The translations under genes were made by a program, and so were the position numbers. The notes beneath the pieces were generated by a model. That model was not told the DNA's origin, did no database searches, and saw nothing but the letters and a program-made list of their open reading frames with translations. A stretch of DNA of 64,000 bases from Candidatus Omnitrophota bacterium (GTDB lineage Bacteria > Omnitrophota > Gorgyraeia > Zapsychrales > Zapsychraceae). The stretch's first letter is position 1. Every line of letters begins with the position of its first letter. Below, one piece after another: positions 1 through 30,570 of this stretch. Location: the NCBI GenBank assembly GCA_029261065.1, contig JAJDCB010000026.1:18715-82714 (forward strand), written 5' to 3'.

Positions 1-638
1 CAAACGAGGCCCCCATGGCTACAAGAAGAATGACAGCATCGCACAACCTTTCAAAATTTTCCGGAAGAGCCTTAGAAACATATTTTTGAAAAAGTTGTCT
101 AAAGAGTGGAGCCATTCCCATTTCTTTGTGTAGAGCATGTAAAAAAATTAAACCCGCATGATCAATCTGTTCTCCATCAACAGTGGGCGCCATTTGAAAA
201 CTACTTGCAACATCATCTTTTATGATTTGTGGTTTGAAAGTATCCTCGACGGAGTTTTGGGTAATTTCCTTCGAATGAACTTTCGGAGATTCTTTTAACT
301 TTGGTTTGGTTCTCGGCTTGTCCTTCTTCTCGATTTTTAAGGCGGCTTCTTCCGAGGGCTTAAATCCAAATTTTTTAAAAGTGGAAGAAAGTTGTTCCTT
401 TTTGGCTTGTGGGATAGTAAATTTTTTGGCGGCACTTACGTTTCTGCCGCGCCTTCCCACCGAACTACTAAGCTGTGATTTTTTTAAAATGGTATTAATC
501 GATGACTTTGAAACTTTTACCTCAAAACATTCATAGACCAGCTCTGAGAGTTTACGACAACTCACACCTGGATCATTTTTCTTTGTATCAACAATAAATG
601 ATACAACTTCATCTTTAAGTTTATATATAACACCCATA
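1..638 (-). CDS. Partial ORF running off the window start (stop not seen). N-terminal HTH-like segment; possible transposase-like or regulator protein
   Basis: Reverse-strand ATG at 636-638 gives MGVIYKLKDEVVSFIVDTKKNDPGVSCRKLSELVYECFEVKVSKSSINTILKK..., open through coordinate 1. It is absent from the ORF track only because it has no stop in the window. The +306..536 ORF lies inside it. Confidence 0.4.
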
Positions 639-712: not shown

Positions 713-1123
713 TTACTTGTCCTTCTTTTTAATTACGATGTGATCGCCCACAGAGGTTTTACTTGAAGAAATGACGCCAACGGGTAACTCAATGGCGTAA
801 TTAGCCTTCCAATATATGGCACTTAATCGATTAGGTTTAATATCATTAACTATACCTACCACATAATTTTCTTTATTAAGAAAAATAACATCAATAGAAA
901 ATTCCATAAAAAACATATGAATAGAATTACACTTTGTGATAATTAGGGCCTCATCCTTAAATAATTTCTTTCTCCCAAGCAATCCTTTCATACGTGTCCA
1001 AAAGGTGTTGGCGAGTAAGCCATTGTCGGCGAGAGATGTATTTTTGGTTTGGTTAAGAATTTGAAAGGATAAGTCTTTATGGCTTTGAGATGATTGTAAG
1101 TGGTTGCTCATTTGAAGCCACAC
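713..1123 (-). CDS. DUF192 (COG1430) family protein
   Basis: Motifs MKGLLGR...IHMFFM...IDVIFLNKENYVVGI...AIELPVGV...VGDHIV match the DUF192 pattern. Co-oriented immediately downstream of the cpaF-like gene. Confidence 0.55.
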   Translation of the reverse strand: MWLQMSNHLQSSQSHKDLSFQILNQTKNTSLADNGLLANTFWTRMKGLLGRKKLFKDEALIITKCNSIHMFFMEFSIDVIFLNKENYVVGIVNDIKPNRLSAIYWKANYAIELPVGVISSSKTSVGDHIVIKKKDK

Positions 1124-1198: not shown

Positions 1199-3370
1199 CT
1201 ACGAGTCTTTTTTGTTAAATATATTTTTATCCATTTGAAGACCTCGGGTAATAAAATCATCGTAACATTTTGGAATATAACCTGTGGTTTGATAATCACC
1301 CAAGACGACACCACCTTCACCAATGCCTGCCTGCTTATAAACAAAAACATCTGCAAGCTCCAATTGAAACTCTTTATCTAACCCAAGCGTTTCAGTAATT
1401 CCGGTAATTTTTCGTGTCCCATCAGACATCCTATTAACATGCACAACAATTTGAATAGCTGAGGAAATCATCTCGTTAATAGCACGAACGGGAAGCTCGA
1501 CACCACTTAACAAAATGAGAGAATGCAACCTTGTAATCGCATCTCTTGTGGAGTTGGCATGAAGGGTTGTCATGGATCCATCGTGCCCCGTGTTCATAGC
1601 TTGAAGCATATCTAAAACCTCGCCCCCTCGACACTCACCAATGAGGATTCGGTCCGGTCTCATACGAAGACTGTTAACAAATAAATCTCTAATAGTAACA
1701 GCACCTCGTCCTTCAACGTTCGGTGGACGAGTTTCTAACCGCCCCCAATGACTCTTTTTCAAACGTAACTCAGCAGCATCTTCAATGGTTAAAATACGTT
1801 CCTCGTCGGGGATAAATTCCGAGATAACATTAAGCAGGGTTGTCTTACCAGCACCCGTTCCCCCCGATACAATAATATTTTTTCGCGTCAAAACACACGC
1901 TTTAATAAAATCTCTCATATCAACCGTTAAACTTTTATATTTTTCTAATAAGTCTGTTGATTCTAATTTTTCATGAGCAAATTTTCGAATCGTAATCATA
2001 GGACCATTTAATGAAAGTGGTGGGATAATGGCATTAACACGAGATCCGTCGGGTAAACGGGCATCAACCATAGGTGTTGACTCATCAATTCTTCTTCCAA
2101 GAGGGGCGATGATTCTATCAATAATGGCTCTCATCTTGTCATTCGATATAAATTTTCTATTTGTAAAAACAAGCTTACCGCTTTTCTCAACGTAAATTGT
2201 GTCTTTATTGTTAGCCATAATATCCGTGACTTCTGGATCTGCCAAAAACTCCTCCAAAGGTCCTAAACCAAGGGCTTCATTAACGATATCCTTTACTAAA
2301 CGCGTCCGCTCATCGTGTGAACCTATGGTTCCCCCACTTTCTTCCAATAAAAGGTTTCCAACAATTTCTTCTGAACTCTTCTTAACTTTTAGAGCGGCAC
2401 TCGGATCGCTTAATGTATCAATCGTAATACCATCTAAATTCAATCTTTCGACGAGCTTTTCATGAATTTTTTGTTTGAGTGCGAAAATTTCGGATTCTTC
2501 TGTTGTATACCCCGCATCCGGTCCCGGTCCCGAAGGTACACCTGTGGTAACACCAAACTTTTGCCAAAATTTATCTGGTTGCTCTAAACCTTCTGTTGTT
2601 CGTAATGTTTCGGTATCCGCTGGCTTTACAAAAATGGCTTCCTTAATTAGCATACTAATTGTTTTAACAAAAGCCTCTGTAACTTTACTTCGAGGGCTAT
2701 CAACGACACAAGGAATCCCTTGATTTAATGCAATTCCAACCGTTTTACCATCAGATGGAATGTGACTAAATATTTCACAAGGCAAGGCCGAACGCACTTC
2801 CTGCCAGGCAACACTACCTCGAGATTCAGAACGATTTAAGATAAGCTTAACCATCTTTAGAGGATATTGTAAGTTTTGCAAAACCTCCAAACACCACTTT
2901 ATTTGGTAAACAGCAAGAATGTCTGGGGTTGCGATTAGAAGAATGAGGTTGGAGTAATCAAGAACAGCAATCAAGTTTTCTGAAAAAGACTTACCTGCGT
3001 CGACAAAAATGTAATCATAGGCAGTGATAGCTTTTTTAAAAAATAATTTTATATTGTCTGGAGTAACTAAACTAATTTGTTGAGCATTTTTTATAGCTGG
3101 TAGGAAATCTATACCGCAGGAATGGGTTGTTACAAAACTTTTAACAGCATTTGGATCATCATTGCCTTCCAGTTGTCCTATGACATCAGCGATGCAATTT
3201 CTGGGTGATAAATTAAGCATGCGAGCCATGTCTTGGCTAGCCTGAAAATCAAGATCTATTAAAAGAACTTTTTTCCCTGTTAAGGACATTGCTGCCGCTA
3301 GATTAACAGTTGCAAAGGTCTTTCCAACACCCCCCTTAGAACTAAATATTGTTATAATTTTACAATCCAT
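1199..3370 (-). CDS. Fusion protein: N-terminal ParA/MinD-like (TadZ/CpaE-like) P-loop ATPase plus C-terminal CpaF/TadA (VirB11/GspE superfamily) secretion ATPase
   Basis: N-terminus has the deviant Walker [12 protein letters not shown] Gly/Pro linker follows ([14 protein letters not shown]). The C-terminal half has Walker [13 protein letters not shown] plus [18 protein letters not shown] and [14 protein letters not shown] motifs typical of CpaF/TadA. Confidence 0.8.
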
Positions 3371-3519: not shown

Positions 3520-5184
3520 CTAATTTTTTTGTAAACTATAAACAATAGGTATAGTGACATTTAATTCTTGCAGATCGGAGTTGGCGGGAAAACTAGAAAA
3601 TGGAGCAGAATTTTTTGCTGTTTCTAAAGCAATATCATCAAAAATATTGCGACCCGAAGATTCTTTAACCAAAGCAAAAGCAAGTGTTCCATCGTTAAGA
3701 ATAAGCATTCCAACCTTGACTGTTCCTTCCCATCCGTACCTTAAGGCTTCTTCTGGATAAACAACGCCTTTAGATATTTGTTTCTGAATGCTTCGCACAT
3801 AGGCTGTCATTTCGCGGGGAATCCCAGAATAATAAGGGGCAACATCTTTTATCGTTGGCGTCGCTAATCTTTGCGACTGAGAACTTTCATTACCCATCAT
3901 GGATGTCTTTGCGTTATCATCACTTTGTTCGTTATTATCTTCTTTTTCTGTAGATAAATCATTACGATACTTATGTAAAATACGAGGCGTTAGTGAAATA
4001 ACGATTTCCGTATCTGTTTCCGGCGTTGGCATAGATTTGCTACGGAAGAGAGCTCCGACGACAGGTACATTTCCTAGGAAAGGAACCTTTTTAATGCTCT
4101 CAGAACGTAATTCTCTAATTAATCCGGCCATAATAGTTGTTTGCCCATCGTCCAAAAATAAATGTGTCTGAGCACTTCTTGTGACAAAGGCGACATCATC
4201 ACCAACGGCATTGGCAGCATCAATATCGCTAATTTCAACACTCATTGAAATGTCAATTTTTTCTTTAATAATCGTTGGTGTAATCGACATAGATACACCA
4301 TATTCTTTATAAGCAACATTTGCTGATGTAACACCTTCAGATGTTGTGGTTGTTCTTACAGGAACTTCTCCACCTACTAAAAATGTTGCCTGCTCGCCAC
4401 TACTAACAAGTAGTTTTGGCTTTGACAACACTCGTCCTTTTCCTTCTTCTAATAAGGCATTAATTACGGACAATAAAGGCGTTGTGCGTCTAAAATCACC
4501 GATTTTAAAATAATCTGAAACGGAACCATCTAGGCTTGGCAATGTTTCCGCATATTTTAATATAATTCTACTATCGGCACCTGTTGACCAATCAAAACCT
4601 AAACTTTTAGTCAGAGTCGTATTAAGCTCTGTTACCTGCATATTAATTTCAAGTAAGTCGTCAATTTCTTCAAGTTTTGCCAGGTTTATAATATGATCGT
4701 CAAAAGGCGTTAAGATTTGATCTAAGTGATCTTCTCTATGTTCTGGAATGTACCCAGAAACAATAATTCGTCCTTCTTTTTTATTTATGTCTAAATCAAT
4801 CTTCGTAATTCTCGCGGAATCCAAAAGTTTTTGAATTCTCTTTTTAATATACTCTAGATCTTCTGCTGTTACATTAATGACAATTGGTCTCTTTCCATTT
4901 TCATCCCAAACAAATAAAGTTGTAATACCAACACTTTGCGCGACAAGTAAAATTTCATTGTCGTCGGCATCAACAATGTCGACAATATCTGGATCTGTTA
5001 TAGAAAGTCTTGTTAAGGTGTATACCTTTAATGTCACAAGTTCACCTTTGACCATTTGAACTTCATTTATATAGACGGTATCTATAACCTCGCTAAGTGC
5101 GTTTTTAGCAAGAAATGGCGCTGATACCATTGTGAGGACGATTAAAAAAGTAAAAAAGATCTGAGTATACGAATGTTTTTTCAT
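3520..5184 (-). CDS. CpaC/RcpA-type secretin with a C-terminal TonB_C-like domain
   Basis: Signal peptide, then a pilus-formation N-terminal (BON-like) region. Secretin core (KPKLLVSSGEQATFLVGGEVPV...). C-terminal ~95 aa has the TonB C-terminal pattern (YPEEALRYGWEGTVKVGMLILNDGTL...VKESSGRNIFDDIALETAKNSAPFSSFP...IPIVYSL). Confidence 0.75.
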   Translation of the reverse strand: MKKHSYTQIFFTFLIVLTMVSAPFLAKNALSEVIDTVYINEVQMVKGELVTLKVYTLTRLSITDPDIVDIVDADDNEILLVAQSVGITTLFVWDENGKRPIVINVTAEDLEYIKKRIQKLLDSARITKIDLDINKKEGRIIVSGYIPEHREDHLDQILTPFDDHIINLAKLEEIDDLLEINMQVTELNTTLTKSLGFDWSTGADSRIILKYAETLPSLDGSVSDYFKIGDFRRTTPLLSVINALLEEGKGRVLSKPKLLVSSGEQATFLVGGEVPVRTTTTSEGVTSANVAYKEYGVSMSITPTIIKEKIDISMSVEISDIDAANAVGDDVAFVTRSAQTHLFLDDGQTTIMAGLIRELRSESIKKVPFLGNVPVVGALFRSKSMPTPETDTEIVISLTPRILHKYRNDLSTEKEDNNEQSDDNAKTSMMGNESSQSQRLATPTIKDVAPYYSGIPREMTAYVRSIQKQISKGVVYPEEALRYGWEGTVKVGMLILNDGTLAFALVKESSGRNIFDDIALETAKNSAPFSSFPANSDLQELNVTIPIVYSLQKN

Positions 5185-5187
5185 GGT

Positions 5188-6033
5188 TTACAACTCTCTT
5201 CCTGCTCTAAAAATTTGAATGAATGGTTCCACTTCATCAGAATCATCGTCAGAAACCTCATTGACCACGATACTAGATTTTGGTAGATCCAACTCTGTTC
5301 CTTGTCTCTCAAGAACATAATCTGCAAGAGCATCCCAAGAGGCAACTTGCATTTCTTTAGTGGACCTTTCAGAAGGGGACCTTAGTGTTAATTGTAGGCG
5401 TCCAAAAGACTGCGCAAAGGATAGAAGCGAGGCTTCTTCTGGATTAACGGCAAGTGTTACATTTAATTGTTTAGTTTGTTGTTGTGTTTGATAGAGTACG
5501 GCGTTTCCAACGGGCTTAAAATTTGCCCCAACAGCAAGGACTTGAACATTTTGAAATAACACACTTGTTACTTTTGTGTTATCTTGTGATTCGCCTGGTT
5601 TAGGAATTTTTAAATGGCCAATGATGTCAACAAAATCACCTGGATTAATCAAACCGCCAACCGCAGACAACGAATCAAGCAATACGGTCATCGCTCGTTT
5701 CCCAGGCGGAGTTACTACTGAGAAAACAGTGCTGTCGACTATTTCTTTTGGTGCTCCCGGACCAACATTACCTGCTCCACGTGGTTGGGAGGCGAGATGT
5801 TTTTGTTGTTTTGCTAAAGAAACTTGATTTTGTTCTAACTTCTTTAGTTGTCCTCTTAATCCTTCAAATTCTTGAATAATTTTAGAGCTTTTCTTCTCAT
5901 AATTTTTTACGATAATCTTACGTTGTTCGTCAATACTACTCTTAACATATTGTGCTGTTAAATAGGCTGCAACCAAACCTAATCCTATCGCTAAAGCTAA
6001 TGTTGCAAACTGTTTTTTATTTTCAATATTCAT
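5188..6033 (-). CDS. CpaB/RcpC-like Flp pilus assembly protein
   Basis: N-terminal TM segment, coiled coil, and a C-terminal RcpC-like region (...LNVTLAVNPEEASLLSFAQSFGRLQLTLRSP). Stop overlaps the cpaC start (translational coupling). Confidence 0.55.
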   Translation of the reverse strand: MNIENKKQFATLALAIGLGLVAAYLTAQYVKSSIDEQRKIIVKNYEKKSSKIIQEFEGLRGQLKKLEQNQVSLAKQQKHLASQPRGAGNVGPGAPKEIVDSTVFSVVTPPGKRAMTVLLDSLSAVGGLINPGDFVDIIGHLKIPKPGESQDNTKVTSVLFQNVQVLAVGANFKPVGNAVLYQTQQQTKQLNVTLAVNPEEASLLSFAQSFGRLQLTLRSPSERSTKEMQVASWDALADYVLERQGTELDLPKSSIVVNEVSDDDSDEVEPFIQIFRAGREL

Positions 6034-6088: not shown

Positions 6089-7048
6089 CTATTTCAATAG
6101 ATCGCTGTTTATCTCTACAGAACCTTTTTCTCTTAATTCATTGATATATTCAAGGATCACTTTTTGCTGCTTATCCAACGTAATTTGCTGAATAATTGTA
6201 TTTTTAACCTCTTCAAAAGGAATCTGTTCTCCGCCTTGCTTATCTTCCAGCTTAATGATGTAGTAACCATCCGGACCTTGAAAAACATCACTTGTCTCTC
6301 CCTCACTAAGAGCTAATAAAGGAGCAGCCATTTGCTCAAAAGGAACATCATTAATAAAACCCAAATCTCCGCCCTTAAGCGACGTGTCACTTTTTGAGTG
6401 CTCTCTTGCTAAAGATGCAAAGTCTTCACCACTTTGGATTTTTAACTTTATCTCATTTGCTTTGGATTCGGAATCGAGCTTGATTTCGCGAACTTGCCAT
6501 TGCCCAGGCTGTGTTATTAAATCTTTGTTGAGATCATAAAACTCTCTGGCCTCATCGCTCGATACTTTAACATCTTCGACAAGACCTCGAGCAAGTTCTC
6601 TAACAATAACTGTTCGGCGAAATTCTTCGACTGCGGCGACAATATCTTTACTATTGGCTAAGCCTGATCTTTCGGCCTCATTAACTAATAGCTGTTGTCT
6701 TACCAACTCTTCTAAGACTAACTCGCGAGCTTCTAAATTTGAAAGATCAAAATCTGGAACAACTTCTTTTAAGGCTTCTAGCCTATCATTAAATTCTTCT
6801 AAGGTTAAAGACCAATTGCCAACAACCGCAACCGTGTTGCCTGTTAAGGTAGGTTGACTTTTAGCTTTTTCTTTCGGTGCTTCGGACTGTTGTTTTTCTT
6901 CCTTGGCAGTATTCTTTTCTTCTGTTTTGGAAAAACGATCTTTGATGCTTTTAAAAACTTCACAACCCAACGAGCTTGTAACTGTAATAAAGCAAAAAAG
7001 AATTAAAAATGCGTGGTACTTGTGGTGCCCAATTTTATTCTTTTTCAT
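6089..7048 (-). CDS. Secreted parvulin-type peptidyl-prolyl cis-trans isomerase (SurA/PrsA-like)
   Basis: Signal peptide. The rotamase domain has FASLAREHSKSDTSLKGGDLGF...DVFQGPDGYYIIKL. First gene of the minus-strand cpaB-cpaC cluster. Confidence 0.7.
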   Translation of the reverse strand: MKKNKIGHHKYHAFLILFCFITVTSSLGCEVFKSIKDRFSKTEEKNTAKEEKQQSEAPKEKAKSQPTLTGNTVAVVGNWSLTLEEFNDRLEALKEVVPDFDLSNLEARELVLEELVRQQLLVNEAERSGLANSKDIVAAVEEFRRTVIVRELARGLVEDVKVSSDEAREFYDLNKDLITQPGQWQVREIKLDSESKANEIKLKIQSGEDFASLAREHSKSDTSLKGGDLGFINDVPFEQMAAPLLALSEGETSDVFQGPDGYYIIKLEDKQGGEQIPFEEVKNTIIQQITLDKQQKVILEYINELREKGSVEINSDLLK

Positions 7049-17475: not shown

Positions 17476-17539
17476 AAAATGAATTTTGTTATTATATTTA
17501 AGATTCAATTTTCGTCAAGTAAAATATTTTTCGGCGAAT

Positions 17540-19993
17540 TTATGCTTCGTCTTTATGCACGACATTGGCAATGGAGCTTACAATGTCATCTTTACTTAAA
17601 TTAATGAGTTTAACACCAACCGCACTGCGTCCTGTTTGACGAACGTCACTTGGGGCACATCTAACAACCATGCCTTGTTTGGTTACTGTCATAACTTCAT
17701 CACCTTCGACAACAGCTAAAACGCCAACAACAGGTCCGTTACGATCTGTGACCTTAACGTTAATTATACCTTTTCCTCCACGAGACTGTGTTCGGTAATC
17801 TTCAAAATTAGATCTTTTAGCATATCCTTTTTCTGTTACCGATAAAAGAGTGCTTCCTGTTTTACTGATGTCTGGTGGGAAGACTTGCATGCTGACGACT
17901 TGATCGGATTTTCTAAGACCAATTCCCTTAACTCCTTTTGCGCCTCGTCCCATATCTCGTATTTGCTTCTCAGAGAAACGCAAAGATTTACCTTCCTTCG
18001 TTGCCAAAAGAACATCATATTTTCCTGTGCTTAAAGATGTTCCTATTAAAGCATCCCCTTTGTCCAATGTGATTCCTACAATTCCCGATTTGCGAGGATT
18101 GCTAAAGGCGGAAAGTTTTGTCTTTTTAACATTTCCCTTGGCTGTTGCCATAACAAGAGACATGGTGTCTGTAAATTCTTTGACCGCTACAATGGAGCTA
18201 ATATTTTCATCCTTTGCCAAAGATAGCAGATTAACAATATTTTTTCCCTTAGCATGTCTTGCCGCTATTGGTATCTCATAAACTTTAAGCCAGCGAATAA
18301 TACCTTTGTTTGAGAAGACAAGTAGATAATCTTTAGATGATGCGACAAATAATTGTCTGACAAAATCTTCTTCTCGCGTTGTCATCGCAGCAACACCCTT
18401 ACCACCACGTTTTTGTTTTCGATACGATGAAACGGCTAACCGCTTGATATATCCGGCATTACTAATCGTAATCGCCATGTCTTCTTCAGCAATTAAATCT
18501 TCTATTTCAATTTCTTCCGCTTTTGCCGCAATCTCTGTTCGACGCGGATTAGAATATTTTTTCTTAATAGCAGCTAATTCATCTTTAACTATATCATTTA
18601 TCATTTGCTCAGATGCTAAAATAGAGCGGTAGAGATCGATATCTTTTAATAAGGCCTTATATTCATCATCAATTTTATGTTGTTCTAGAGCTGTTAGCCT
18701 TTGCAGTTGCATTTCCAAAATGGCTTGCGCTTGGATTTCGGAAAGTTTAAAATTTTTCATCAAATTGACTTTAGCGATCGACGACGATTTTGACTCACGA
18801 ATCGTTTTAATAACTTGATTAATAAAGTCTAAAGCAATTTTCAATCCTTCTAGGATATGAGCTCTTCTAAGGGCTTTGTCTAAATCAAATTGTGTACGAC
18901 GACGGACAACAACACGACGATGTACGATAAAGTTTGAACATATTTGTTTAAGATTTAAAATTTGTGGACTGTTGTTTACAAGGGCAAGATTAATAACACC
19001 GAAGGTTGTTTCCAATTGTGTATGTTTGTACAAATAATTAAGAACGATTTGTGGCTGAACATCTCGGCGTAGTTCGATAACAATACGAATACCATCTTTA
19101 TCAGATTCATCACGAAGATCTGTAATGCCATCAATTTTTTTAAGTTGAACAAGTTTTGCGATAGCCTCTATCAAATTGGATTTATTAACCTGATATGGGA
19201 TTTCCGTAACAACAATCGTATCTTTATTTGCCTTTTGTCGTTCAATCGTTGCTCGCGCACGAACAGTTAGCTTGCCGCGCCCCGTTTCCTGAGCATTTTT
19301 GATTCCTTCTCGACCACAAATAATCCCACCTGTAGGGAAATCCGGACCCTTTACAAACTTAGCTAGCTGTTTGATTGTCGCCTCTGGCGTATCAATTAAA
19401 TGAGTGATCGCATCAATAGACTCACCCAAATTATGCGGAGGCATATTTGTGGCCATACCAACGGCAATTCCACTAGAACCATTGATAAGTAAATTTGGAA
19501 TAACAGATGGCAGACAGGTTGGTTCTTTTAAAGAGCCATCGTAATTAGGGACAAAATCAACCGTGTTCTTTTCAATATCATTTAACATCTCATGAGCAAT
19601 ACCGGTAAGTCGGGCTTCCGTATAACGCATCGCGGCCGCAGCATCCCCGTCGACAGAACCAAAATTTCCTTGGCCATCCACTAAAGGGTATCTCATGCTA
19701 AATTCCTGAGCCATGCGCACCAAGGTATCATAAATCGCTGAATCCCCATGAGGATGATATCCCCCCATAACGTCCCCAACGATCTTCGCACATTTTCTAA
19801 ACGGTTTGTTTGGAGCTAAACCCATGGCATGCATCCCATAAAGGATACGTCTATGTACAGGTTTTAAACCATCTCTGACATCCGGTAAGGCCCTTCCGAC
19901 AATAACACTCATCGAATAAGAAAGATAAGAGCTCTTCATCTCTTCTTCTATAAAAACAGGAACTATTTTTTCTCGAATAGATAAATCACGCAT
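17540..19993 (-). CDS. gyrA: DNA gyrase subunit A
   Basis: AMRYTEARL active-site Tyr region. 817 aa. Confidence 0.95.
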
Positions 19994-20015
19994 TGCTTCT
20001 TACCTTTCACCTTTA

Positions 20016-22798
<2,783 letters not shown>

Positions 22799-22848
22799 AA
22801 AGAATCAAAAATTTCTAGTCAATTTTATTTTTATTTAAACTTCGGGAT

Positions 22849-23937
22849 CTAGATCCTCATCGGAAGAGCCAAATACAAATAATCATCTATTCTCATAACA
22901 GCAGGTTTATCTACACCTAAAAGCTCCATATCAATATCCTCTTCATCAATATTCTTAAGAAAATCGATGAGAAATTGGGGATTAAAACCTACAACTAATT
23001 CGTTTCCTGCGTATTCGACAGGAATTTCCTCTCTAGATTCTCCAACATCAGGTGTCGTCTTTGAGATGACCATTTTATCCTTAAATATCTCGAATTTAAC
23101 GGCTTGGAAATCCGGAGTTGCTAACAAATTGGCGCGACGGATCGAAAATAAAAAATCTTTAGTATTCATTTTAATCCGATTTTTAGCTGGTTTTGGAATA
23201 ACTTGGTTATAATTTGGAAAATCGCCCTCAATCATTCTTGTCGCAATAAGAACACCATCAATATCAAATAAAATCTGATTAACCCCAATGATAAAAGAAA
23301 CCTGGCCATCTTCTTTTAAATTTCGACTAATTTCCATAACAGCCTTAATAGGCAAAATAACAGAAACTTCCTTTTTTATAGATTTTTCTAGTTTTTTCTC
23401 CGATTTAGCTAATCTTCTTCCATCAGTTGCCACAACACGAATTAAATCATTTTGGATCTCCAAAAGAACTCCGTTTAAAACATATCGAGATTCTTCGTGT
23501 GAAACAGCAAAAGACGTTAATCTAAACATTTCCTTTAAAATAGCCTGATCTATCTGGATAACCTCTTTGTCCTTAAACTCCGGAAATTTGGGGAATTCTT
23601 CTTTAGGAAGCCCTATGAGTTTAAACCGGCAATTAACACCTTCAATATCAATCTGATTGTTTTTCTTAGCATGAATAGTTATATCCCCAGCAGGAAGTTC
23701 TTTGACAATGTCGCTAAATCTTTTCGCTGGAATAGTTATTGCCCCTTCTTCAAGAGTTTCCACAGGTAATTCACAGGATATACCTATGTCTAAATCAGTA
23801 GCATTGAGCTTAATGTGACCATCGCGAGCTTCCATTAATATGTTAGAAAGTATAGGTAGAGTCGCTTTAGGCGATACCACGTTTTGAACTGTATGAATAC
23901 CGTTTAACAAAATATCTTTAGAAAGTTTAATTTTCAT
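22849..23937 (-). CDS. dnaN: DNA polymerase III beta sliding clamp
   Basis: 362 aa with the three-domain beta-clamp pattern, directly downstream of dnaA. Confidence 0.9.
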   Translation of the reverse strand: MKIKLSKDILLNGIHTVQNVVSPKATLPILSNILMEARDGHIKLNATDLDIGISCELPVETLEEGAITIPAKRFSDIVKELPAGDITIHAKKNNQIDIEGVNCRFKLIGLPKEEFPKFPEFKDKEVIQIDQAILKEMFRLTSFAVSHEESRYVLNGVLLEIQNDLIRVVATDGRRLAKSEKKLEKSIKKEVSVILPIKAVMEISRNLKEDGQVSFIIGVNQILFDIDGVLIATRMIEGDFPNYNQVIPKPAKNRIKMNTKDFLFSIRRANLLATPDFQAVKFEIFKDKMVISKTTPDVGESREEIPVEYAGNELVVGFNPQFLIDFLKNIDEEDIDMELLGVDKPAVMRIDDYLYLALPMRI

Positions 23938-24085
23938 TGTTAATACATCCTCCTATTATACTAAGGTATAATGTCCCCAATTAGTATTAGTCTAAGTAGG
24001 CCCTGTGGAAAACTAGAACAACTTCGAAAACAATTTAAAACAAACAACTTATAGAAAAAAATCCCGTTAATAACCTTGGGATGAA

Positions 24086-25429
24086 TTATGAATCTCGTTG
24101 TAAAGTATGGGATAACTCTAAAAGGATATTTTTCATCGAAGAATTTTTACCTTCTTCTCCTTCAATCTTTTTACAAGAATGCAACACAGTTGTGTGGTCT
24201 TTACCTCCAAAGGCATAGCCGATCTCTGGCAAAGACATGTGTGTTAACTTACGCGTGAGAAACATAGCTACTTGGCGCGCGTTTACGATATTTTTATTTC
24301 GCTTTTTAGCCCGCAATTCTGTTACCGGAATATTAAAATATTCAGAGACACATTTTTGCACCTGCTCAACGCTAATCGTTTTGGTTGTTTCTTTAACCAT
24401 ATCTTTAAGAACTACTTTGGCCATGTCTAATGTAATGTCTGTATCATCTAATAAAGAATATGCAGCAACACGAATGAGGGCTCCCTCCAATTCGCGAATG
24501 TTTGTTTGAATTTGTTCGGCAATAAAAATAATAACCTCATCTGGAATGTTGGCCGGTTCCAACTCTGCTTTTTTTCTTAAAATGGCAACGCGCGTTTCAA
24601 AATCTGGAGGTTGAATATCTGTAATAAGTCCCCAGGCAAAACGGGAACTTAACCTCTCCTCTAGATTTGCAATTTCTTTTGGAGGCCTATCAGATGTTAT
24701 GATGATTTGTTTGTGGTTGTTGTGTAGATTATTAAAGGTGTGGAAAAATTCTTCTTGTGTTGATTCTTTACCAGCAATAAATTGAATATCATCAATAAGT
24801 AAAACATCTATCTCTCTATATTTTTTTCTAAAGGCAACAGTTGACCGATGACGAATGGCATCTATCAGTTCGTTTGTGAACTTCTCCGACGACATATAAC
24901 AAATTTTTATATCTGGAGATATCTCTCGAATTTTTTGTGTAACAGCCTGCATAAGATGAGTTTTTCCTAAGCCCACTTGGCCATAAATAAAAAGCGGATT
25001 ATATGCTTTTGCTGGCGATTCGGCAACGGCAAGACTTGCCGCACAGGCGAAACGATTAGATGGGCCGACAACAAAGTTATCAAAATTAAATCGAGTATTT
25101 AAGTTTTGGGAAATGTTTGGGCCCTTTTCTGGAACGACTTGTTGGGCTTCATTTAGTCGTAAGTGAGACTCGTCTTCTAAAATTTGGGAGTTAACCAAAT
25201 ATTCTATTTGAACGCTATACGTGGCGAGATTGTTGACGGTTTCTTGAATATAGGATTCGTAATGTTCTACAATCCAATTTTTAAAGAAATCGTCGGGGGT
25301 TTCGATAATAAGAGTTTCAGGATCTTTTTCTTTAACCTGAATAGTTGAAAACCACGTTTCGTAAGAAGTGGTTCCTACCTTATTTTTAATTTCCTCTTTG
25401 GCTTTATCCCAAATTTCTGAAAGACTCAT
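24086..25429 (-). CDS. dnaA: Chromosomal replication initiator DnaA
   Basis: AAA+ Walker A (GQVGLGKTHLMQA), sensor motifs, and C-terminal DNA-binding domain (VAMFLTRKLTHMSLPEIG). Confidence 0.95.
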   Translation of the reverse strand: MSLSEIWDKAKEEIKNKVGTTSYETWFSTIQVKEKDPETLIIETPDDFFKNWIVEHYESYIQETVNNLATYSVQIEYLVNSQILEDESHLRLNEAQQVVPEKGPNISQNLNTRFNFDNFVVGPSNRFACAASLAVAESPAKAYNPLFIYGQVGLGKTHLMQAVTQKIREISPDIKICYMSSEKFTNELIDAIRHRSTVAFRKKYREIDVLLIDDIQFIAGKESTQEEFFHTFNNLHNNHKQIIITSDRPPKEIANLEERLSSRFAWGLITDIQPPDFETRVAILRKKAELEPANIPDEVIIFIAEQIQTNIRELEGALIRVAAYSLLDDTDITLDMAKVVLKDMVKETTKTISVEQVQKCVSEYFNIPVTELRAKKRNKNIVNARQVAMFLTRKLTHMSLPEIGYAFGGKDHTTVLHSCKKIEGEEGKNSSMKNILLELSHTLQRDS

Positions 25430-25881
25430 ATTTTGACAGATAAATTTCTAACAAACATGACCAGTGGATTACTCCAAAGGTGTATTTGTCTATTATTGTT
25501 AAGGTTAAACGCGTAGAAAAAAGTTGTACACAAGTTTTCCACAGCAGTGAATAAACTTTATTTTCTTTAAGTCCTAGAAAATCTTGATGATGTGTTGATG
25601 TTGTTTCCGCGAGTACTACTTTGAAATGTTTATTTCAAAAGATTGTTTATTATAACAAAGAAATTTTTTATTACAATTCATATTTTAAGTCTCCTATAGC
25701 GATGGGAAACAAATTCAATAAAGATAAAAGCAATATGGTGTAATAAAAGGGTCGTCGATAAAAGAGTTAATTTATGTAGAATTAAAAGTTGTTGGTATCA
25801 CTTAAGATTTAAATCTTTTTGGGATTTATTTAGGGTTAAAACGCTTGACTAACAAAGGCTCTGTGTTATAATCTTCGAATT
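25430..25881. promoter_or_regulatory. Candidate oriC region (dnaA-rpmH intergenic)
   Basis: AT-rich 450-bp spacer at the point where gene orientation diverges. DnaA-box-like TTTTCCACA at ~25525. The same 9-mer (as TGTGGAAAA) lies in the dnaA-dnaN spacer at ~24003. Confidence 0.5.
25845..25872 (+). promoter_or_regulatory. Sigma-70-type promoter for rpmH (TTGACT-N16-TGtTATAAT)
   Basis: -35 TTGACT at 25845-25850 and extended -10 TGTTATAAT at 25864-25872. The ATG at 25882 is only ~10 nt downstream, so the mRNA would be near-leaderless. Confidence 0.5.
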
Positions 25882-26019
25882 ATGAAAAAGAATTTAACTA
25901 CACCAACGATCATAAAAGGTAAACGAACCCACGGTTTTAGAAAAAGAATGCAAACGGCCGATGGGCGCGCTGTGTTAAAAAGACGACGAGCCAAGGGCCG
26001 TACTCGACTGAGCAAGTAG
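25882..26019 (+). CDS. rpmH: 50S ribosomal protein L34
   Basis: [45 protein letters not shown] (45 aa). Below the ORF-track size cutoff, so translated by hand. Confidence 0.9.
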
Positions 26020-26030
26020 TCCAAACTCCT

Positions 26031-26240
26031 ATGGTTTGGTTTATTACACAAATTATCAAAGTTTATCAAAAAATAAGTCGATACTGCTTCCCACGATGCT
26101 GTCGATATTATCCTTCGTGCTCCCAATACGCCCTAGAATCCATACAAAAGTACGGTGCTTTTAAGGGGCTCTACAAATCAATCATACGTATTCTCAAGTG
26201 TTCACCCTTTTTTAAAGGTGGATTTGATCCTGTAAGGTAA
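26031..26240 (+). CDS. yidD: Membrane protein insertion efficiency factor YidD
   Basis: [19 protein letters not shown] motif. Confidence 0.85.
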
Positions 26241-26244
26241 TATT

Positions 26245-27915
26245 ATGGAAAAACGTTTTGTAATAGCTATAATACTATCCTTTTTAGTATTATATGTATG
26301 GTCGCTCACAAATCCTCAAAAAAGCAAACCACTCCTCCAAAACAAAACATCACAAATTATTGAAAATAAAGAATTTACAGAAAACAAGAGACCTTCTTTA
26401 GATTCAAACACAGATAGACCTGCCCAGCTGGCCCCCAGCAACGACTCCAACATTAAAGAAGAACCCTTTGTTGCTGAAACGAGTAAATTCGTTGCTAGTT
26501 TTTCAAGTATCGGAGGAAATCTTAAGGAAATAACCCTTAAAGAGTACAACCACACTTTACCCGTAAGATTTTTTTTAAACCTACCAGAATTTGAACATGT
26601 ACCATTTGTCTTAAATGATTCCGCCAGAAATTTTGTGTCATATGTATATCAAAATAACGAAATTAAGGTTGTCAAAACATATCATTTGTCCAATGAGGAT
26701 AATTTGATCAATGTTGCGTTGGAAATCACCAATAAAACGGAAATGTCCAAACTGATGGATATCAAAATAGATAGTTTTAGTGTGGATTTTTCCAGTTTGG
26801 ACAAAAAAAGACAGCGGCTAAACATGCTTATGGAGTACGCCATATCACATAACGGAACGATTGACAGAAAGAAAAATATATCTAAGTTTAAGCAAGAGAA
26901 CGATATAGCTGTAAACGACACAGTTAATTGGATCGGTTTTAGAGATCAATATTATTGTACCATTGTACAACCAGAATTTGAGACAAATAGCTACTATATT
27001 GAATCTGTAAACGAGAAAAAGGCTAGATTAGGGATGAAAGTCGTTGAAAACAGGATAGAACCGAATAATAGGGTGACGTTTGAATCTACCGTGTATATAG
27101 GGCCTCAAGATGTAAAACTTTTAAATTCCTATGACAGAGGATTTGAAAAGATAATAAGTTTTGAGATTGGAGGATTTTTTGACATAATGGCCCTTGGCCT
27201 AACAGATAAGATAGCAAAAATATTGTTAATATTACTAAATTTTATACACAAAATTGTCCCAAATTGGGGGATGACGATTATATTATTTGCTGGAGTTATA
27301 TATGGAATAACGTATCCATTTACCTATAAAAGTATGCTTTCTATGAAGAAATCGCAAAGTAGGATGCAGGTTATACAGCCAGAATTAAAGAAGATACAAG
27401 ATAAATATAAAAGCAATCCCAAAAAGATGCAAGAAGAGATAATGAAGATTTACAAAAAGCACAACTTTAACCCTTTAAGTACGTTGGGGGGGTGTTTGCC
27501 TATGTTGTTCCAAATGCCTATATTTGTAAGCCTTTACCAACTTTTATGGAGAAATTACGCCTTTAAAGGGGCCAATTTCTTATGGATTAAGGATCTTTCT
27601 GAGCCGGACAGACTATTTGGGTTACCTTTTAATTTACCTTATTTTGGAAACGAATTCAACATTTTACCAATTCTATACGGGCTGATGATGTTTTTTCAGC
27701 AAAAAATGCAGTCAAAGAATATGACCGTTTCTGATCCCGCCCAGGCTGAAGCTCAAAAGATGATGGCCAAGATATTCCCAGTTATGTTAGGTGTTTTATT
27801 TTACAAATTTGCCAGTGGACTTACACTATATTTTACTGTATACTTCTTGTTGACTACGCTGTCACATTGGAAAATGAACAAGACCCTTAAAATGGAAGAG
27901 CAGAAAGCGGCGTGA
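26245..27915 (+). CDS. yidC: Membrane protein insertase YidC
   Basis: N-terminal TM segment, large periplasmic domain, and C-terminal five-TM Oxa1 core. Confidence 0.9.
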   Translation: MEKRFVIAIILSFLVLYVWSLTNPQKSKPLLQNKTSQIIENKEFTENKRPSLDSNTDRPAQLAPSNDSNIKEEPFVAETSKFVASFSSIGGNLKEITLKEYNHTLPVRFFLNLPEFEHVPFVLNDSARNFVSYVYQNNEIKVVKTYHLSNEDNLINVALEITNKTEMSKLMDIKIDSFSVDFSSLDKKRQRLNMLMEYAISHNGTIDRKKNISKFKQENDIAVNDTVNWIGFRDQYYCTIVQPEFETNSYYIESVNEKKARLGMKVVENRIEPNNRVTFESTVYIGPQDVKLLNSYDRGFEKIISFEIGGFFDIMALGLTDKIAKILLILLNFIHKIVPNWGMTIILFAGVIYGITYPFTYKSMLSMKKSQSRMQVIQPELKKIQDKYKSNPKKMQEEIMKIYKKHNFNPLSTLGGCLPMLFQMPIFVSLYQLLWRNYAFKGANFLWIKDLSEPDRLFGLPFNLPYFGNEFNILPILYGLMMFFQQKMQSKNMTVSDPAQAEAQKMMAKIFPVMLGVLFYKFASGLTLYFTVYFLLTTLSHWKMNKTLKMEEQKAA

Positions 27916-27942
27916 TTAGAGGGTATTTGAAGGAAAGAGGCT

Positions 27943-28143
27943 ATGAACGAAAAATTACATAAAGGAATAGAAGTAGAGGGTACTAACGTAGAAGACGCAA
28001 TAGTGAAGGCTCTAGAGCAGCTAGAGGTAACCAGAGACGAAGTTAACATCAAGATCGTTTGTGAAGAAAAAAAGGGCCTTTTTGGAATGGAAGGGGCTAA
28101 GCCCGCCAAGATAAAGGTAACCCTTAAAGAAAAAACAGAATAA
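27943..28143 (+). CDS. Jag_N-domain-only protein (truncated Jag/KhpB homologue lacking KH/R3H)
   Basis: The 66-aa product matches the Jag N-terminal domain and sits in the jag position after yidC. No KH/R3H coding follows in any frame. Confidence 0.5.
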   Translation: MNEKLHKGIEVEGTNVEDAIVKALEQLEVTRDEVNIKIVCEEKKGLFGMEGAKPAKIKVTLKEKTE

Positions 28144-28187
28144 GGCTTGATTTTTTAGCCATTTATAAGAAAATATATACAGATTAA

Positions 28188-28227
28188 TGTTTCACGTGAA
28201 AACAAATGTTTGAGTTTCACGTGAAAC
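28188..28227. promoter_or_regulatory. Two parS centromere-like sites (TGTTTCACGTGAAAAC and GTTTCACGTGAAAC)
   Basis: Matches to the parS consensus tGTTTCACGTGAAACa at 28188-28203 and 28214-28227, immediately upstream of parA. Confidence 0.7.
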
Positions 28228-28258
28228 GTCAAATAACATTCACCAATCCCAAAGTCCT

Positions 28259-29116
28259 ATGGGAAAAACAATATCCATATGTAATCAGAAAGGCGGCACT
28301 GGTAAAACAACTACCAGTGTTAATCTTTCGGCTTCTTTGGCAGAACTTGGCAAAAAAGTTCTTATTGTTGATGCCGACCCGCAAGGAAATGCAACAAGCG
28401 GGGTAGGGGTTAATAAGAATGAATTAGATATATCTGTATACGATCTTCTTATAAATAAACATACAGCACGGGAAGCCATCATCAAAGACGTCTGTCCTAG
28501 ATTGGACATTGTTCCTTGCAATATTAATCTTACAGCTGCAGAGATAGAACTTGTTGGTGCTTTGTCCAGAGAAACAAGACTAAAAAAAGCGCTAGAACAG
28601 GTTAAAAAAGAGTACGATTTTATATTTATCGATTCGCCACCATCCTTAGGCCTACTAACCTTAAACGCTCTGGTTGCCAGCGACTCTATAATAGTACCTA
28701 TACAATGCGAGTTTTACGCGCTAGAAGGGGTCACACAGCTCTTAAATACTTTAGGTCTAATAAGAGATGGTCTTAATCCGGATTTGGCCATAGAGGGCGT
28801 ATTAATGACCATGGCTGATTACCGGACTAACTTGACGAACGAAGTAATAAAAGAGATAAGTTCCTATTTTAAAGATAAAGTATATAAGGCCGTAATTCCT
28901 AGAAATATACGTTTAAGTGAAGCCCCAAGTCATGGTAAACCCATTAATCATTACGATAACACGTCAATTGGTGCGAAAAAGTATTTGGAGTTGGCACATG
29001 AACTTGTTGGGAAAAATCAAGACGACTATAAAGCTATGCAAGTAAACAGGTTAGGTGGTGTCGAGTCTGAGCGTACTGACGAATCTTCAATTAGTGATCA
29101 AGGTCCCATTGCTTAA
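28259..29116 (+). CDS. parA: Chromosome partitioning ATPase ParA/Soj
   Basis: Deviant Walker A KGGTGKTT. Confidence 0.9.
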   Translation: MGKTISICNQKGGTGKTTTSVNLSASLAELGKKVLIVDADPQGNATSGVGVNKNELDISVYDLLINKHTAREAIIKDVCPRLDIVPCNINLTAAEIELVGALSRETRLKKALEQVKKEYDFIFIDSPPSLGLLTLNALVASDSIIVPIQCEFYALEGVTQLLNTLGLIRDGLNPDLAIEGVLMTMADYRTNLTNEVIKEISSYFKDKVYKAVIPRNIRLSEAPSHGKPINHYDNTSIGAKKYLELAHELVGKNQDDYKAMQVNRLGGVESERTDESSISDQGPIA

Positions 29117-29218
29117 TTAATTTAATTTGTTCATATTTTGAACGTAAAATACGTTGTTAGTAAAGAAATTCAATATTTAGCTTTATCCGTATCTGAAGAA
29201 TAAAACATAGGGGGATAA

Positions 29219-30070
29219 ATGGATAACAAAGCCTTAGGCAAAGGTCTTTCAGCCTTAATACCTGAAAAAGCAGAAGAAGCTATTAAACCACAAGATGGTT
29301 TAATGCAGCTAAAAATTGAGAGTATAAAAGATAACAGTTTACAGCCTCGCGTTAATTACGATGAGTCAAAACTTGATGAGCTTAAAGCATCCATTAAAGA
29401 GAAGGGTGTGTTACAACCCATTTTGGTAAGACAAAAAGGGGATGGGTATGAAGTTGTTGCAGGTGAGCGACGGTTAAAAGCAGCAAGGGCCCTAAATTTA
29501 AAAGAATTGCCTGTTATTATTAAAGAAGTTTCGGATAAAGAGGCTTTTGTCATCGCCCTTGTTGAAAACATTCAACGCGAAGATTTAAATCCTATTGAGG
29601 AAGCTCAATCTTACAAAAAGTTAATGGAAGAATTTTATTATACACAAGAGGATGTCGCCAAATCTGTTGGAAAAAATAGAACAACAGTTAGCAACATGAT
29701 GCGATTGCTTAAGCTACCTGAAGAGATACAACAAAGTTTGTTCGAGGGTGTTTTAACAGTGGGCCATGCACGCGCATTGTTGGCGGTAGAATCTCTCGTC
29801 GATAAAAAGAAATTATTTGAAGAAACAATTAAAAATAAATATTCAGTTAGAGATTTAGAAAGTAGAATTCGTCGTTTAGAGCAAGCTGGATCAAAACCGA
29901 AAAAAGCACAGAAACAAAAAATGCCAGAGTTGTTGGTGTTAGAAGACAACTTACAGAAAACGTTAGGAACAAAAGTGAACATTTCGTCATCTAAAAAAAG
30001 AGGAAAGATCACAATTGACTATTATTCTTTCGATGACTTAGATAGAATTTTACAATTAATAAAAAAATGA
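29219..30070 (+). CDS. parB: Chromosome partitioning protein ParB/Spo0J
   Basis: ParB box (GERRLKAA) and HTH (TQEDVAKSVGKNRTTVSNMMRLL). Confidence 0.9.
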   Translation: MDNKALGKGLSALIPEKAEEAIKPQDGLMQLKIESIKDNSLQPRVNYDESKLDELKASIKEKGVLQPILVRQKGDGYEVVAGERRLKAARALNLKELPVIIKEVSDKEAFVIALVENIQREDLNPIEEAQSYKKLMEEFYYTQEDVAKSVGKNRTTVSNMMRLLKLPEEIQQSLFEGVLTVGHARALLAVESLVDKKKLFEETIKNKYSVRDLESRIRRLEQAGSKPKKAQKQKMPELLVLEDNLQKTLGTKVNISSSKKRGKITIDYYSFDDLDRILQLIKK

Positions 30071-30570
30071 AAGAGCCAGCCCTTATAATTATTAAACCAG
30101 ACGCTATTAGTAAAAAACTAGTAGGCCATGTTATAACAAAGTTTTCTCAGACAGGTCTAGAGATGGTTGCCATTAGTATAACAAAAGCCACGAAAAGATT
30201 AGCCGAGGAACATTACCGACACATTAAGGATGAGCCTTTTTTCGACGGGGTGATATCTTATTTGATGGGACGATATCACGTGGAGAAAAAATTGTTGGCC
30301 ATTATTTTTTATGGAGAAGGTGCCATAAAAAAATGTCGAAAGATCGCAGGAGCCACCAACCCTGAGGATGCTCAGCCAGCAAGTATTCGAGGATCTTTTG
30401 GACGTATTACAACAAAAGGTATTTATGAAAACGTTGTACATGTTTCTTCAGATAAAGGGGAAGCTGAAAGAGAAATAAAATTGTGGTTTGATCCTATCGA
30501 TGTCACTGCTAATTTATATAAGACGAAACTAATATCTGATCAGTCTAAAAAAAGAAGGGTTTGGGCATGA
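30067..30570 (+). CDS. ndk: Nucleoside diphosphate kinase (variant active-site context HVSSD)
   Basis: IIKPDA...FFDGVISYL...IRGSFG...NVVHVSSD. The catalytic His is present but the usual HGSD is HVSS. Confidence 0.75.
   Translation: MKEPALIIIKPDAISKKLVGHVITKFSQTGLEMVAISITKATKRLAEEHYRHIKDEPFFDGVISYLMGRYHVEKKLLAIIFYGEGAIKKCRKIAGATNPEDAQPASIRGSFGRITTKGIYENVVHVSSDKGEAEREIKLWFDPIDVTANLYKTKLISDQSKKRRVWA

Follow-up and report, generated by a model that had tools for sequence, protein, structure and literature searches.

A probable TadZA-type fusion ATPase for the Omnitrophota Tad pilus machine

Introduction

Can the two ATPases of a Tad pilus machine, TadZ (CpaE) and TadA (CpaF), be joined in a single protein, and what is such a protein when it is encountered in a genome? 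The question is raised by a gene, here named tadZA, at the beginning of a 64,000-nucleotide (nt) stretch of DNA from Candidatus Omnitrophota bacterium GCA_029261065.1 (contig JAJDCB010000026.1, positions 18,715-82,714 of the forward strand), the whole of which is referred to as the window. A first-pass annotation of this DNA had read the gene product as a single polypeptide that joins a ParA/MinD-like ATPase to a CpaF/TadA secretion ATPase, and had set it against characterised Tad systems, in which TadZ and TadA were taken to be separate proteins. That premise is outdated, the TadZA of Bdellovibrio bacteriovorus having been studied experimentally; nor is the fusion a peculiarity of one genome, being the standard form in Omnitrophota and occurring also in Bdellovibrionota, Elusimicrobiales and WOR-3. 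Here we report that the window protein is very probably a TadZA-type fusion that serves as the cytoplasmic ATPase of the Omnitrophota Tad (type IVc, Flp) pilus machine.

Results

One reading frame encodes both ATPase modules

In the 723-amino-acid (aa) protein encoded by tadZA, the Pfam families AAA_31, CbiA and ParA were matched over residues 3-250 and T2SSE over residues 367-644 (199 bits), and NCBIfam placed MinD models at residues 5-249 and a TadA-family model at 329-658, so that both domains indeed reside in one open reading frame (ORF), and the ParA-family signal whose absence would have told against the first-pass reading is present in the N-terminal half. The sequence elements that had been named were all recovered as well: the deviant Walker A of the N-terminal part at residues 10-19, the Gly/Pro linker as a 14-residue stretch at 275-288, and the motifs of a complete CpaF/TadA at 503-514, 575-584 and, for the His box, 595-606. 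A receiver domain cannot be accommodated ahead of the N-terminal domain, whose Walker A begins as early as residue 10 and whose gene is preceded by 149 nt of non-coding sequence reaching to the secretin gene; this agrees with its description as receiver-less. The gene takes its place in a tad-type operon in the order CpaB/RcpC, secretin and then the fusion (Table 1).

The identity of the motor part is straightforward. By phmmer, the C-terminal 435 residues matched the solved C. crescentus CpaF structures 8rkd, 8rjf and 9e24 at E 1e-110, with residues 325-711 corresponding to CpaF 103-489, and the same three structures were also the top matches by Foldseek. Across 78 aligned orthologues the catalytic residues of the motor are invariant, namely the Walker A GGTGAGKTT at 503-511, E530 and D531 of the Asp box, D573 and E579 of the Walker B, and H596 and H604 of the His box; RcpC/CpaB, a secretin and Flp pilins are encoded nearby, as is characteristic of the Tad locus of a TadA/CpaF. 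Residues 292-371, a helical module, are equivalent to the N-terminal domain 1 (NTD1) defined for CpaF (PMC11300603). The AlphaFold2 (AF2) model of the full protein is of moderate quality, with a mean predicted local distance difference test score (pLDDT) of 68.9 and a predicted template modelling score (pTM) of 0.41, and is uninformative on domain packing or oligomers; its N-terminal domain is well modelled (pLDDT ~80-90) and part of the CpaF C-terminal domain poorly.

As a separate observation on CpaF modules, the protein libraries hold polypeptides in which two or three complete CpaF modules follow one another (P0121, P0122, P0123, P0124, P0126, P0129 and P0072), which would be covalently linked motor subunits; P0121, with 1156 aa, has three.

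The fusion is not an assembly artefact

In most phyla tadZ and tadA adjoin with only a few nt between them, so that a single error near nt 2500-2600, be it a false frameshift or the loss of a stop codon, could join the two adjacent genes and mimic a fusion, a danger that the first-pass annotation had itself pointed out. Yet the identical protein is encoded on an independently built Logan assembly contig. Relatives were taken as the best 120 matches among 5.8 billion proteins (NCBI, JGI, ENA and Logan assemblies), and 119 of them, drawn from these four assembly sources, carry both domain sets in one chain of ~720 aa (median 721 aa; identity 65-72%); the organisms named among the 120 are mostly Candidatus Omnitrophota/Omnitrophica. 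The linker tells the same story. The segment between the invariant G273 and L298 spans 20-25 residues across the 78 aligned orthologues and changes its length by whole codons only, and its sequence is not conserved, while the conserved stretches on both sides, a motif in front and a helix behind, share one frame. With a second assembly, the fused relatives and the in-frame linker variation all pointing the same way, an assembly or sequencing artefact was rejected and retains practically no credibility.

The N-terminal domain is assigned to TadZ

A TadZ profile was built from the ATPase domains of 53 stand-alone TadZ-like proteins that bear a receiver and whose genes lie just upstream of tadA. 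The window N-terminal domain scored 207 bits against this profile, compared with 127 bits for the MinD of A. aeolicus and 78 bits for the window's own ParA (28259-29116), which puts it 80 bits over MinD and 130 over ParA. In pairwise BLASTP comparisons it shared 30-35% identity with stand-alone TadZ proteins at 110-154 bits, versus ~66 bits with MinD, and a receiver-bearing TadZ of the betaproteobacterium Rugamonas was matched over the whole domain (26% identity, E 4e-24). The Walker-A-like pattern of TadZ, K/RGGxGx[ST], is found as S-K-G-G-V-G-K-T at residues 11-18, in which K12, G13, G14, V15, G16 and K17 are invariant across the 78 orthologues, and KGGVG[KR][ST] is present in 117 of the 120 best relatives. 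Moreover, the domain occupies exactly the operon position of tadZ, between the secretin gene and tadA, and no minC, minE or other min genes were found in the locus. Based on the profile and pairwise scores and on this position, the N-terminal domain is, as judged from its sequence, a TadZ-type module that has lost its receiver domain.

Several observations weigh against this assignment and would fit a MinD- or FlhG-type ATPase that was recruited independently to CpaF, in which case the likeness to TadZ plus TadA would be one of analogy only. The best solved-structure matches of the N-terminal domain are the MinD of Aquifex (4v03, E 2.7e-17), the ParA-family protein 3ea0 and FleN by phmmer, and Foldseek of its AF2 model gave 3ea0 at a template modelling (TM) score of 0.88 and FleN/MinD at 0.72-0.83; the E. 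rectale TadZ structure, the only solved protein named TadZ, is neither among the phmmer matches listed (best 60 of 97, E ≤10) nor among the 50 Foldseek matches listed, the family being very divergent. In addition, the top NCBIfam matches of the domain are MinD models, automatic annotation by JGI and Tara labels it MinD, K03609 or COG0455, and it combines a full MinD-like KGGxGK[ST] Walker A with the lack of a receiver domain. However, the MinD models remain far below their cut-offs, with 83 bits against 202 for minD_arch and 77 against 213 for minD_bact, and the TadZ profile, the BLASTP scores, the tadZ slot and the absence of minC/minE neighbours all speak for TadZ. A MinD identity was rejected, given that the family cut-offs were not reached and that the TadZ profile scored higher, and independent recruitment of a MinD/FlhG-type ATPase is considered improbable. 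In a neighbour-joining tree of N-terminal domains, MinD and ParA fell outside all TadZ-like sequences, in a comb-like topology with saturated distances and ParA as the imposed root that makes the tree uninformative.

Receiver-less fusions are the rule in Omnitrophota and occur in further lineages

Genomes were scanned with the fused-protein alignment and the best 80 of at least 600 matches were analysed, which is a sample and not a census. In about 55 loci tadZ is a separate gene, from Chloroflexota, Bacillota, Acidobacteriota, Actinomycetota, Nitrospirota, Planctomycetota, Burkholderiales and others. These separate TadZ proteins mostly have 370-460 aa, with the ATPase domain beginning at residue 130-170 and a receiver domain in front according to Pfam; their genes lie 2-184 nt upstream of tadA, mostly less than 60 nt, with one pair overlapping, and the unfused tadA encodes 430-480 aa. 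Single-ORF fusions were verified in Bdellovibrio sp. HCB288, Pseudobdellovibrionaceae, Bdellovibrionales, an Oligoflexia metagenome-assembled genome (MAG), a groundwater "Deltaproteobacteria" MAG, two Omnitrophota MAGs, an unclassified bacterium, an Elusimicrobiales MAG and a WOR-3 MAG. The survey of CpaF homologues for N-terminal ParA-like fusions that had been proposed for this gene thus uncovered receiver-less fusions in Omnitrophota, Bdellovibrionota, Elusimicrobiales and WOR-3.

An exhaustive search with HMMER, covering 1.84 billion representatives clustered at 50% identity, yielded at least 64 fused proteins among the best 150. Relative to the window protein, their CpaF modules are 44-60% identical (mostly 50-58%) and their N-terminal modules 20-40%, and the named clusters at ~40% full-length identity belong to Bdellovibrionaceae, Bdellovibrionota, Bdellovibrionales and Bacteriovoracia. 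In a neighbour-joining tree of CpaF modules, 74 of 79 fused proteins fell into one half and 81 of 84 short unfused ones into the other, with Omnitrophota and Bdellovibrionota as separate clades within the fused half; this tree is rough, carries no support values and was drawn from a sample biased towards relatives of the query, and so is suggestive only. Across Omnitrophota, the receiver-less fusion is the rule.

Two side observations concern these homologues. In the rough tree, a large group of CpaF homologues whose N-termini are extended by 120-270 residues is placed among the fused proteins (L033, L046, L057, L067, L081 and many representatives of 530-640 aa); the extension in L057, from Acidithiobacillus ferrianus, has no Pfam match. 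Furthermore, the TadZ Walker A is degenerate in some distant fused homologues (P0132, P0135, P0137 and P0156), with the motifs GAKSGSGTT, GGKSGVGTS, GGARDGVGKT and GAKDGVGVS, and Omnitrophota and Bdellovibrionota retain KGGVGK[ST]. The TadZ module may be catalytic in some lineages and a scaffold only in others.

A conserved FWxKFG motif closes the TadZ module

At the C-terminal edge of the TadZ module, immediately ahead of the variable linker, we found an FWxKFG motif. Three of its residues (F268, W269, G273) are invariant in the 78 aligned Omnitrophota orthologues and two more, K271 and F272, over 90% conserved, and it recurs in 118 of the best 120 relatives. Within the inter-domain region, the helical hydrophobic moment is highest on this motif. 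Stand-alone TadZ proteins have short terminal tails of basic/aromatic character at the corresponding position, for example GLFGRIFS, RSIFGG, KGLFKLWARGK and KRFSLFG, and in Caulobacter the CpaE protein reportedly associates with the inner membrane by a C-terminal amphipathic helix (PMC13170226). We infer that FWxKFG is the retained tail of an ancestral stand-alone TadZ that is now internal. Against this interpretation, the AF2 helix at the motif is short (five residues, 267-271) and of low confidence, and the motif is missing from the fused proteins of other lineages, so that it could equally be a lineage-specific partner-binding site. For the variable tether that follows, an origin as a remnant of the intergenic spacer and the disordered N-terminal region of CpaF fits, since the N-terminal 79 residues of Caulobacter CpaF are disordered and dispensable (PMC11300603). 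As a feature at the tail position of TadZ, the FWxKFG motif appears to be a new addition to the known TadZA architecture.

The tadZA locus and its genomic context

The features of tadZA and its neighbours are collected in Table 1; they were compared with the loci of two other Omnitrophota genomes (L082 and L083) and with a contig that extends past the window start (L001). Both of these genomes have the same gene order, running from gyrA via mdh to the pilin array.

Table 1. Coordinates of tadZA, its modules and motifs, and the neighbouring genes (nt positions in the window)
Feature	Position	Strand	Basis
tadZA: TadZ-like ATPase, linker and CpaF/TadA motor	1199..3370	minus	One unbroken ORF, 723 aa, ATG start, stop codon 1199-1201
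TadZ/CpaE-like ParA/MinD ATPase domain, residues 3-250, no receiver (ARD) domain ahead	2621..3364	minus	Pfam AAA_31/CbiA/ParA, TadZ profile, AF2 fold
Deviant Walker A S10-S-K-G-G-V-G-K-T18, signature lysine K12	3317..3343	minus	Orthologue conservation
Conserved motif DKFWQKFGV, residues 266-274, consensus PGxFWEKFGI, putative amphipathic membrane-targeting helix	2549..2575	minus	Orthologue conservation
Variable Gly/Pro/Gln-rich linker, residues 275-291	2498..2548	minus	Alignment; AF2 pLDDT <50
CpaF N-terminal helical module (NTD1 equivalent), residues 292-371	2258..2497	minus	AF2 helices 291-312, 323-344, 352-367
CpaF/TadA NTD2 and catalytic C-terminal domain, residues 372-723	1202..2257	minus	Similarity to solved CpaF, Pfam T2SSE; Walker A nt 1838-1864
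PpiC/SurA-type peptidyl-prolyl isomerase, first gene of cluster	6089..7048	minus	Pfam; placed in the system by synteny only
CpaB/RcpC	5188..6033	minus	Pfam RcpC; NCBIfam pilus_cpaB 102 bits vs cut-off 71
Secretin (CpaC/RcpA type) with C-terminal TonB_C, directly upstream of tadZA	3520..5184	minus	Pfam T2SS-T3SS_pil_N, Secretin, TonB_C
DUF192 gene, directly downstream of tadZA	713..1123	minus	Pfam DUF192; syntenic in L082, L083
5' part of a conserved 550-620-codon gene, no Pfam match, runs off window start	1..637	minus	Continues in L001 3505-5301; syntenic in L082, L083

One finding counts against the proposed function: with ORFs from 80 Tad loci as queries, no TadB/TadC (T2SSF) gene was found in the 64-kb window, nor within 10 kb in L082 and L083. 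As no T2SSF gene lies near tadZA, the platform must be encoded elsewhere in the genome; Omnitrophota TadB/C have been reported elsewhere in genomes, where they group with those of Bdellovibrionales (Seymour et al. 2023, PMC10066038). The Tad system thereby has a dispersed genomic layout like that of B. bacteriovorus, in whose genome the tad genes are dispersed (bioRxiv 10.64898/2026.07.08.737194).

Other genes of the locus merit mention. The TonB_C domain of the secretin occupies its residues 474-551 and the same architecture is seen in L082 and L083, and the secretin of Bdellovibrio sp. HCB288 carries BON instead. Homologues of the DUF192 gene are also found a few kb downstream of tadA in the Tad loci of unrelated phyla (L072, L042 and L063), which, together with its synteny in Omnitrophota, suggests that DUF192 is an unrecognised Tad-associated component. 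Between DUF192 and the pilin array, all three Omnitrophota loci encode a protein of 550-620 aa with a helix-turn-helix-like N-terminus, and the array itself, six to seven tandem Flp-like prepilin genes with KKGQS-x-x-EY-type leaders, lies outside the window start (L001 5835-8683). A scan of the operon for promoters and terminators gave counts at chance level.

The region ~17500-30100 is likely the chromosomal origin region, with dnaA (24086-25429), dnaN, gyrB and gyrA on the minus strand and yidC, parA (28259-29116) and parB (29219-30070) on the plus strand, and with a switch of GC skew and gene orientation at ~24-26 kb. Given these genes and the skew switch, the tadZA locus likely lies ~20 kb from the replication origin, in a conserved chromosomal context.

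Discussion

A possible origin and working mode of the fusion

The fusion would have arisen when a tadZ gene (receiver plus ParA/MinD ATPase) and the downstream tadA merged into one reading frame, with the receiver domain absent from the product. In the proposed mechanism, the CpaF part would assemble into a hexameric, bidirectional motor and, by way of platform proteins that are encoded elsewhere, insert and extract pilins; the six TadZ domains on their tethers would bind ATP and form sandwich dimers of the ParA/MinD type, no more than three to a hexamer; through the putative amphipathic motif and partner proteins, these dimers would keep the motor in place, or position it, at the inner membrane below the RcpC-secretin complex; and the TadZ:TadA ratio would be fixed at 1:1, in place of a separate ring, which in the Caulobacter model consists of six CpaE dimers. 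The motor function of the hexamer, dimerisation, membrane binding, positioning and the effects on stoichiometry are thus all expectations drawn from the architecture. That the covalent fusion brings about an obligate co-localisation of the positioning ATPase with the motor, as the first-pass annotation had held, can fairly be inferred.

Alternatively, the TadZ-like domain could act mainly in cis as a regulator or clutch, whose ATP-dependent dimerisation switches CpaF between engaged and disengaged states, or between extension and retraction, instead of positioning it. The catalytic residues of the module, K12 included, are fully conserved, which suggests real nucleotide cycling, whereas some distant fused homologues have a degenerate Walker A; the receiver domain, which is thought to mediate contacts with polar landmarks, is missing; in Caulobacter, cryo-electron tomography (cryo-ET) suggests that CpaE changes its position with respect to CpaF when non-piliated states are compared with piliated ones (PMC13170226); and the B. 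bacteriovorus TadZA is highly dynamic and moves between the poles rather than being statically polar (bioRxiv 10.64898/2026.07.08.737194). On the other hand, TadZ plus linker of B. bacteriovorus binds the polarity hub RomR (bioRxiv 10.64898/2026.07.08.737194), which amounts to a positioning function, and the two roles are not mutually exclusive. A predominantly regulatory role seems rather unlikely, though it deserves to be taken seriously beside the positioning role preferred here.

A bolder synthesis, which we offer as speculation and consider doubtful as a whole, would take FWxKFG as the retained membrane tail of TadZ and the ATP-driven pairing of the six TadZ modules into three dimers per hexamer as a built-in membrane clutch, which would stand in for the twelve-subunit CpaE ring as well as for the receiver contacts to polar landmarks; receiver-less TadZA would then mark a distinct, possibly single-origin Tad lineage of small-celled predatory or epibiotic bacteria (Omnitrophota, Bdellovibrionota, Elusimicrobiota and WOR-3).

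A 2026 study of Bdellovibrio treated TadZA as an atypical feature of one predator; it is here the rule in Omnitrophota and present in at least two further lineages, with at least 64 distinct clusters of the fused protein at 50% identity. For Tad researchers these proteins constitute a natural experiment on the TadZ:TadA stoichiometry, the role of the receiver domain and the amphipathic tail of TadZ, with FWxKFG as a ready target for mutagenesis, and TadZA becomes a concrete marker within the predatory or parasitic toolkit that has been proposed for Omnitrophota. Annotation practice is affected more than concepts, as these proteins are variously labelled MinD, CpaF or hypothetical.

Comparison with known systems

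The closest described counterpart is the "atypical TadZA hybrid protein" of B. bacteriovorus, which consists of a ParA/MinD-like TadZ with a Walker-A-like motif, a flexible linker and TadA, and has no atypical receiver domain (ARD; bioRxiv 10.64898/2026.07.08.737194). Silencing of tadZA-tadB blocks prey invasion by this bacterium, and the authors cite an earlier prediction of the fusion and suggest that the adjacency of tadZ and tadA eased it (bioRxiv 10.64898/2026.07.08.737194). As this preprint describes exactly the same architecture, the window protein is a further case of TadZA and not a new type of system. Our literature searches on fused TadZ/TadA or CpaE/CpaF returned no description beyond that preprint; the study by Seymour et al. 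(2023, PMC10066038) covers the Tad systems of Omnitrophota, and its main text does not contain the words fusion, TadA or CpaF.

The likeness to Bdellovibrio extends over the full length. A single high-scoring segment pair aligns window residues 2-723 with the TadZA of Bdellovibrio sp. HCB288 (37% identity, E 1e-166); both proteins place a receiver-less TadZ, a flexible linker and TadA in one chain, and both genes follow rcpC and the secretin gene, the HCB288 locus of RcpC, secretin, TadZA and a single T2SSF gene agreeing with the published tad locus 1. Nevertheless, the two differ in several respects. The N-terminal domains of Bdellovibrionota are only ~28-31% identical to that of the window, compared with 31-35% for some stand-alone TadZ proteins, and they have an LxxLxxLxRP-like stretch instead of FWxKFG; the linker sequences are not conserved between Omnitrophota and Bdellovibrionota; tadZA is followed by tadB in Bdellovibrio but by DUF192 and a gene of no known family in the window; and the secretin of Bdellovibrio has BON where that of the window has TonB_C.

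The systems with separate TadZ/CpaE and TadA/CpaF, i.e. those of Caulobacter, Aggregatibacter and the ~55 loci described above, share with the window both ATPase modules and their gene order, with an orthologue-grade CpaF part (E 1e-110), a homologous TadZ ATPase domain and an amphipathic-type motif that ends the TadZ module. The canonical TadZ, however, has 380-430 aa, begins with a receiver/ARD and is made as a protein of its own, whereas the window protein is receiver-less and covalently joined to the motor. In the cryo-ET model of Caulobacter, six CpaE dimers surround one CpaF hexamer and make receiver-receiver contacts (PMC13170226); the window fusion would force a TadZ:TadA ratio of 1:1, in contrast to the 2:1 modelled there, and cannot use such contacts.

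The N-terminal domain resembles MinD in its fold, in its full deviant Walker A (KGGxGK[ST]) and in the short, putatively amphipathic peptide with which the ATPase domain ends, yet it scores far under the MinD cut-offs, has no MinC/MinE context, is nearer to TadZ and forms one chain with a secretion ATPase. Archaeal FlaH-FlaI offers an analogy that is limited to organisation: there, too, a CpaF-related hexameric motor works with another nucleotide-binding protein that is not a motor. FlaI is clearly related in structure to the C-terminal part of the window protein, and the comparison with FlaH was already raised for Caulobacter, the hidden Markov model (HMM) profile of FlaH resembling CpaE (PMC12637624). 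In archaea, however, the two are separate proteins.

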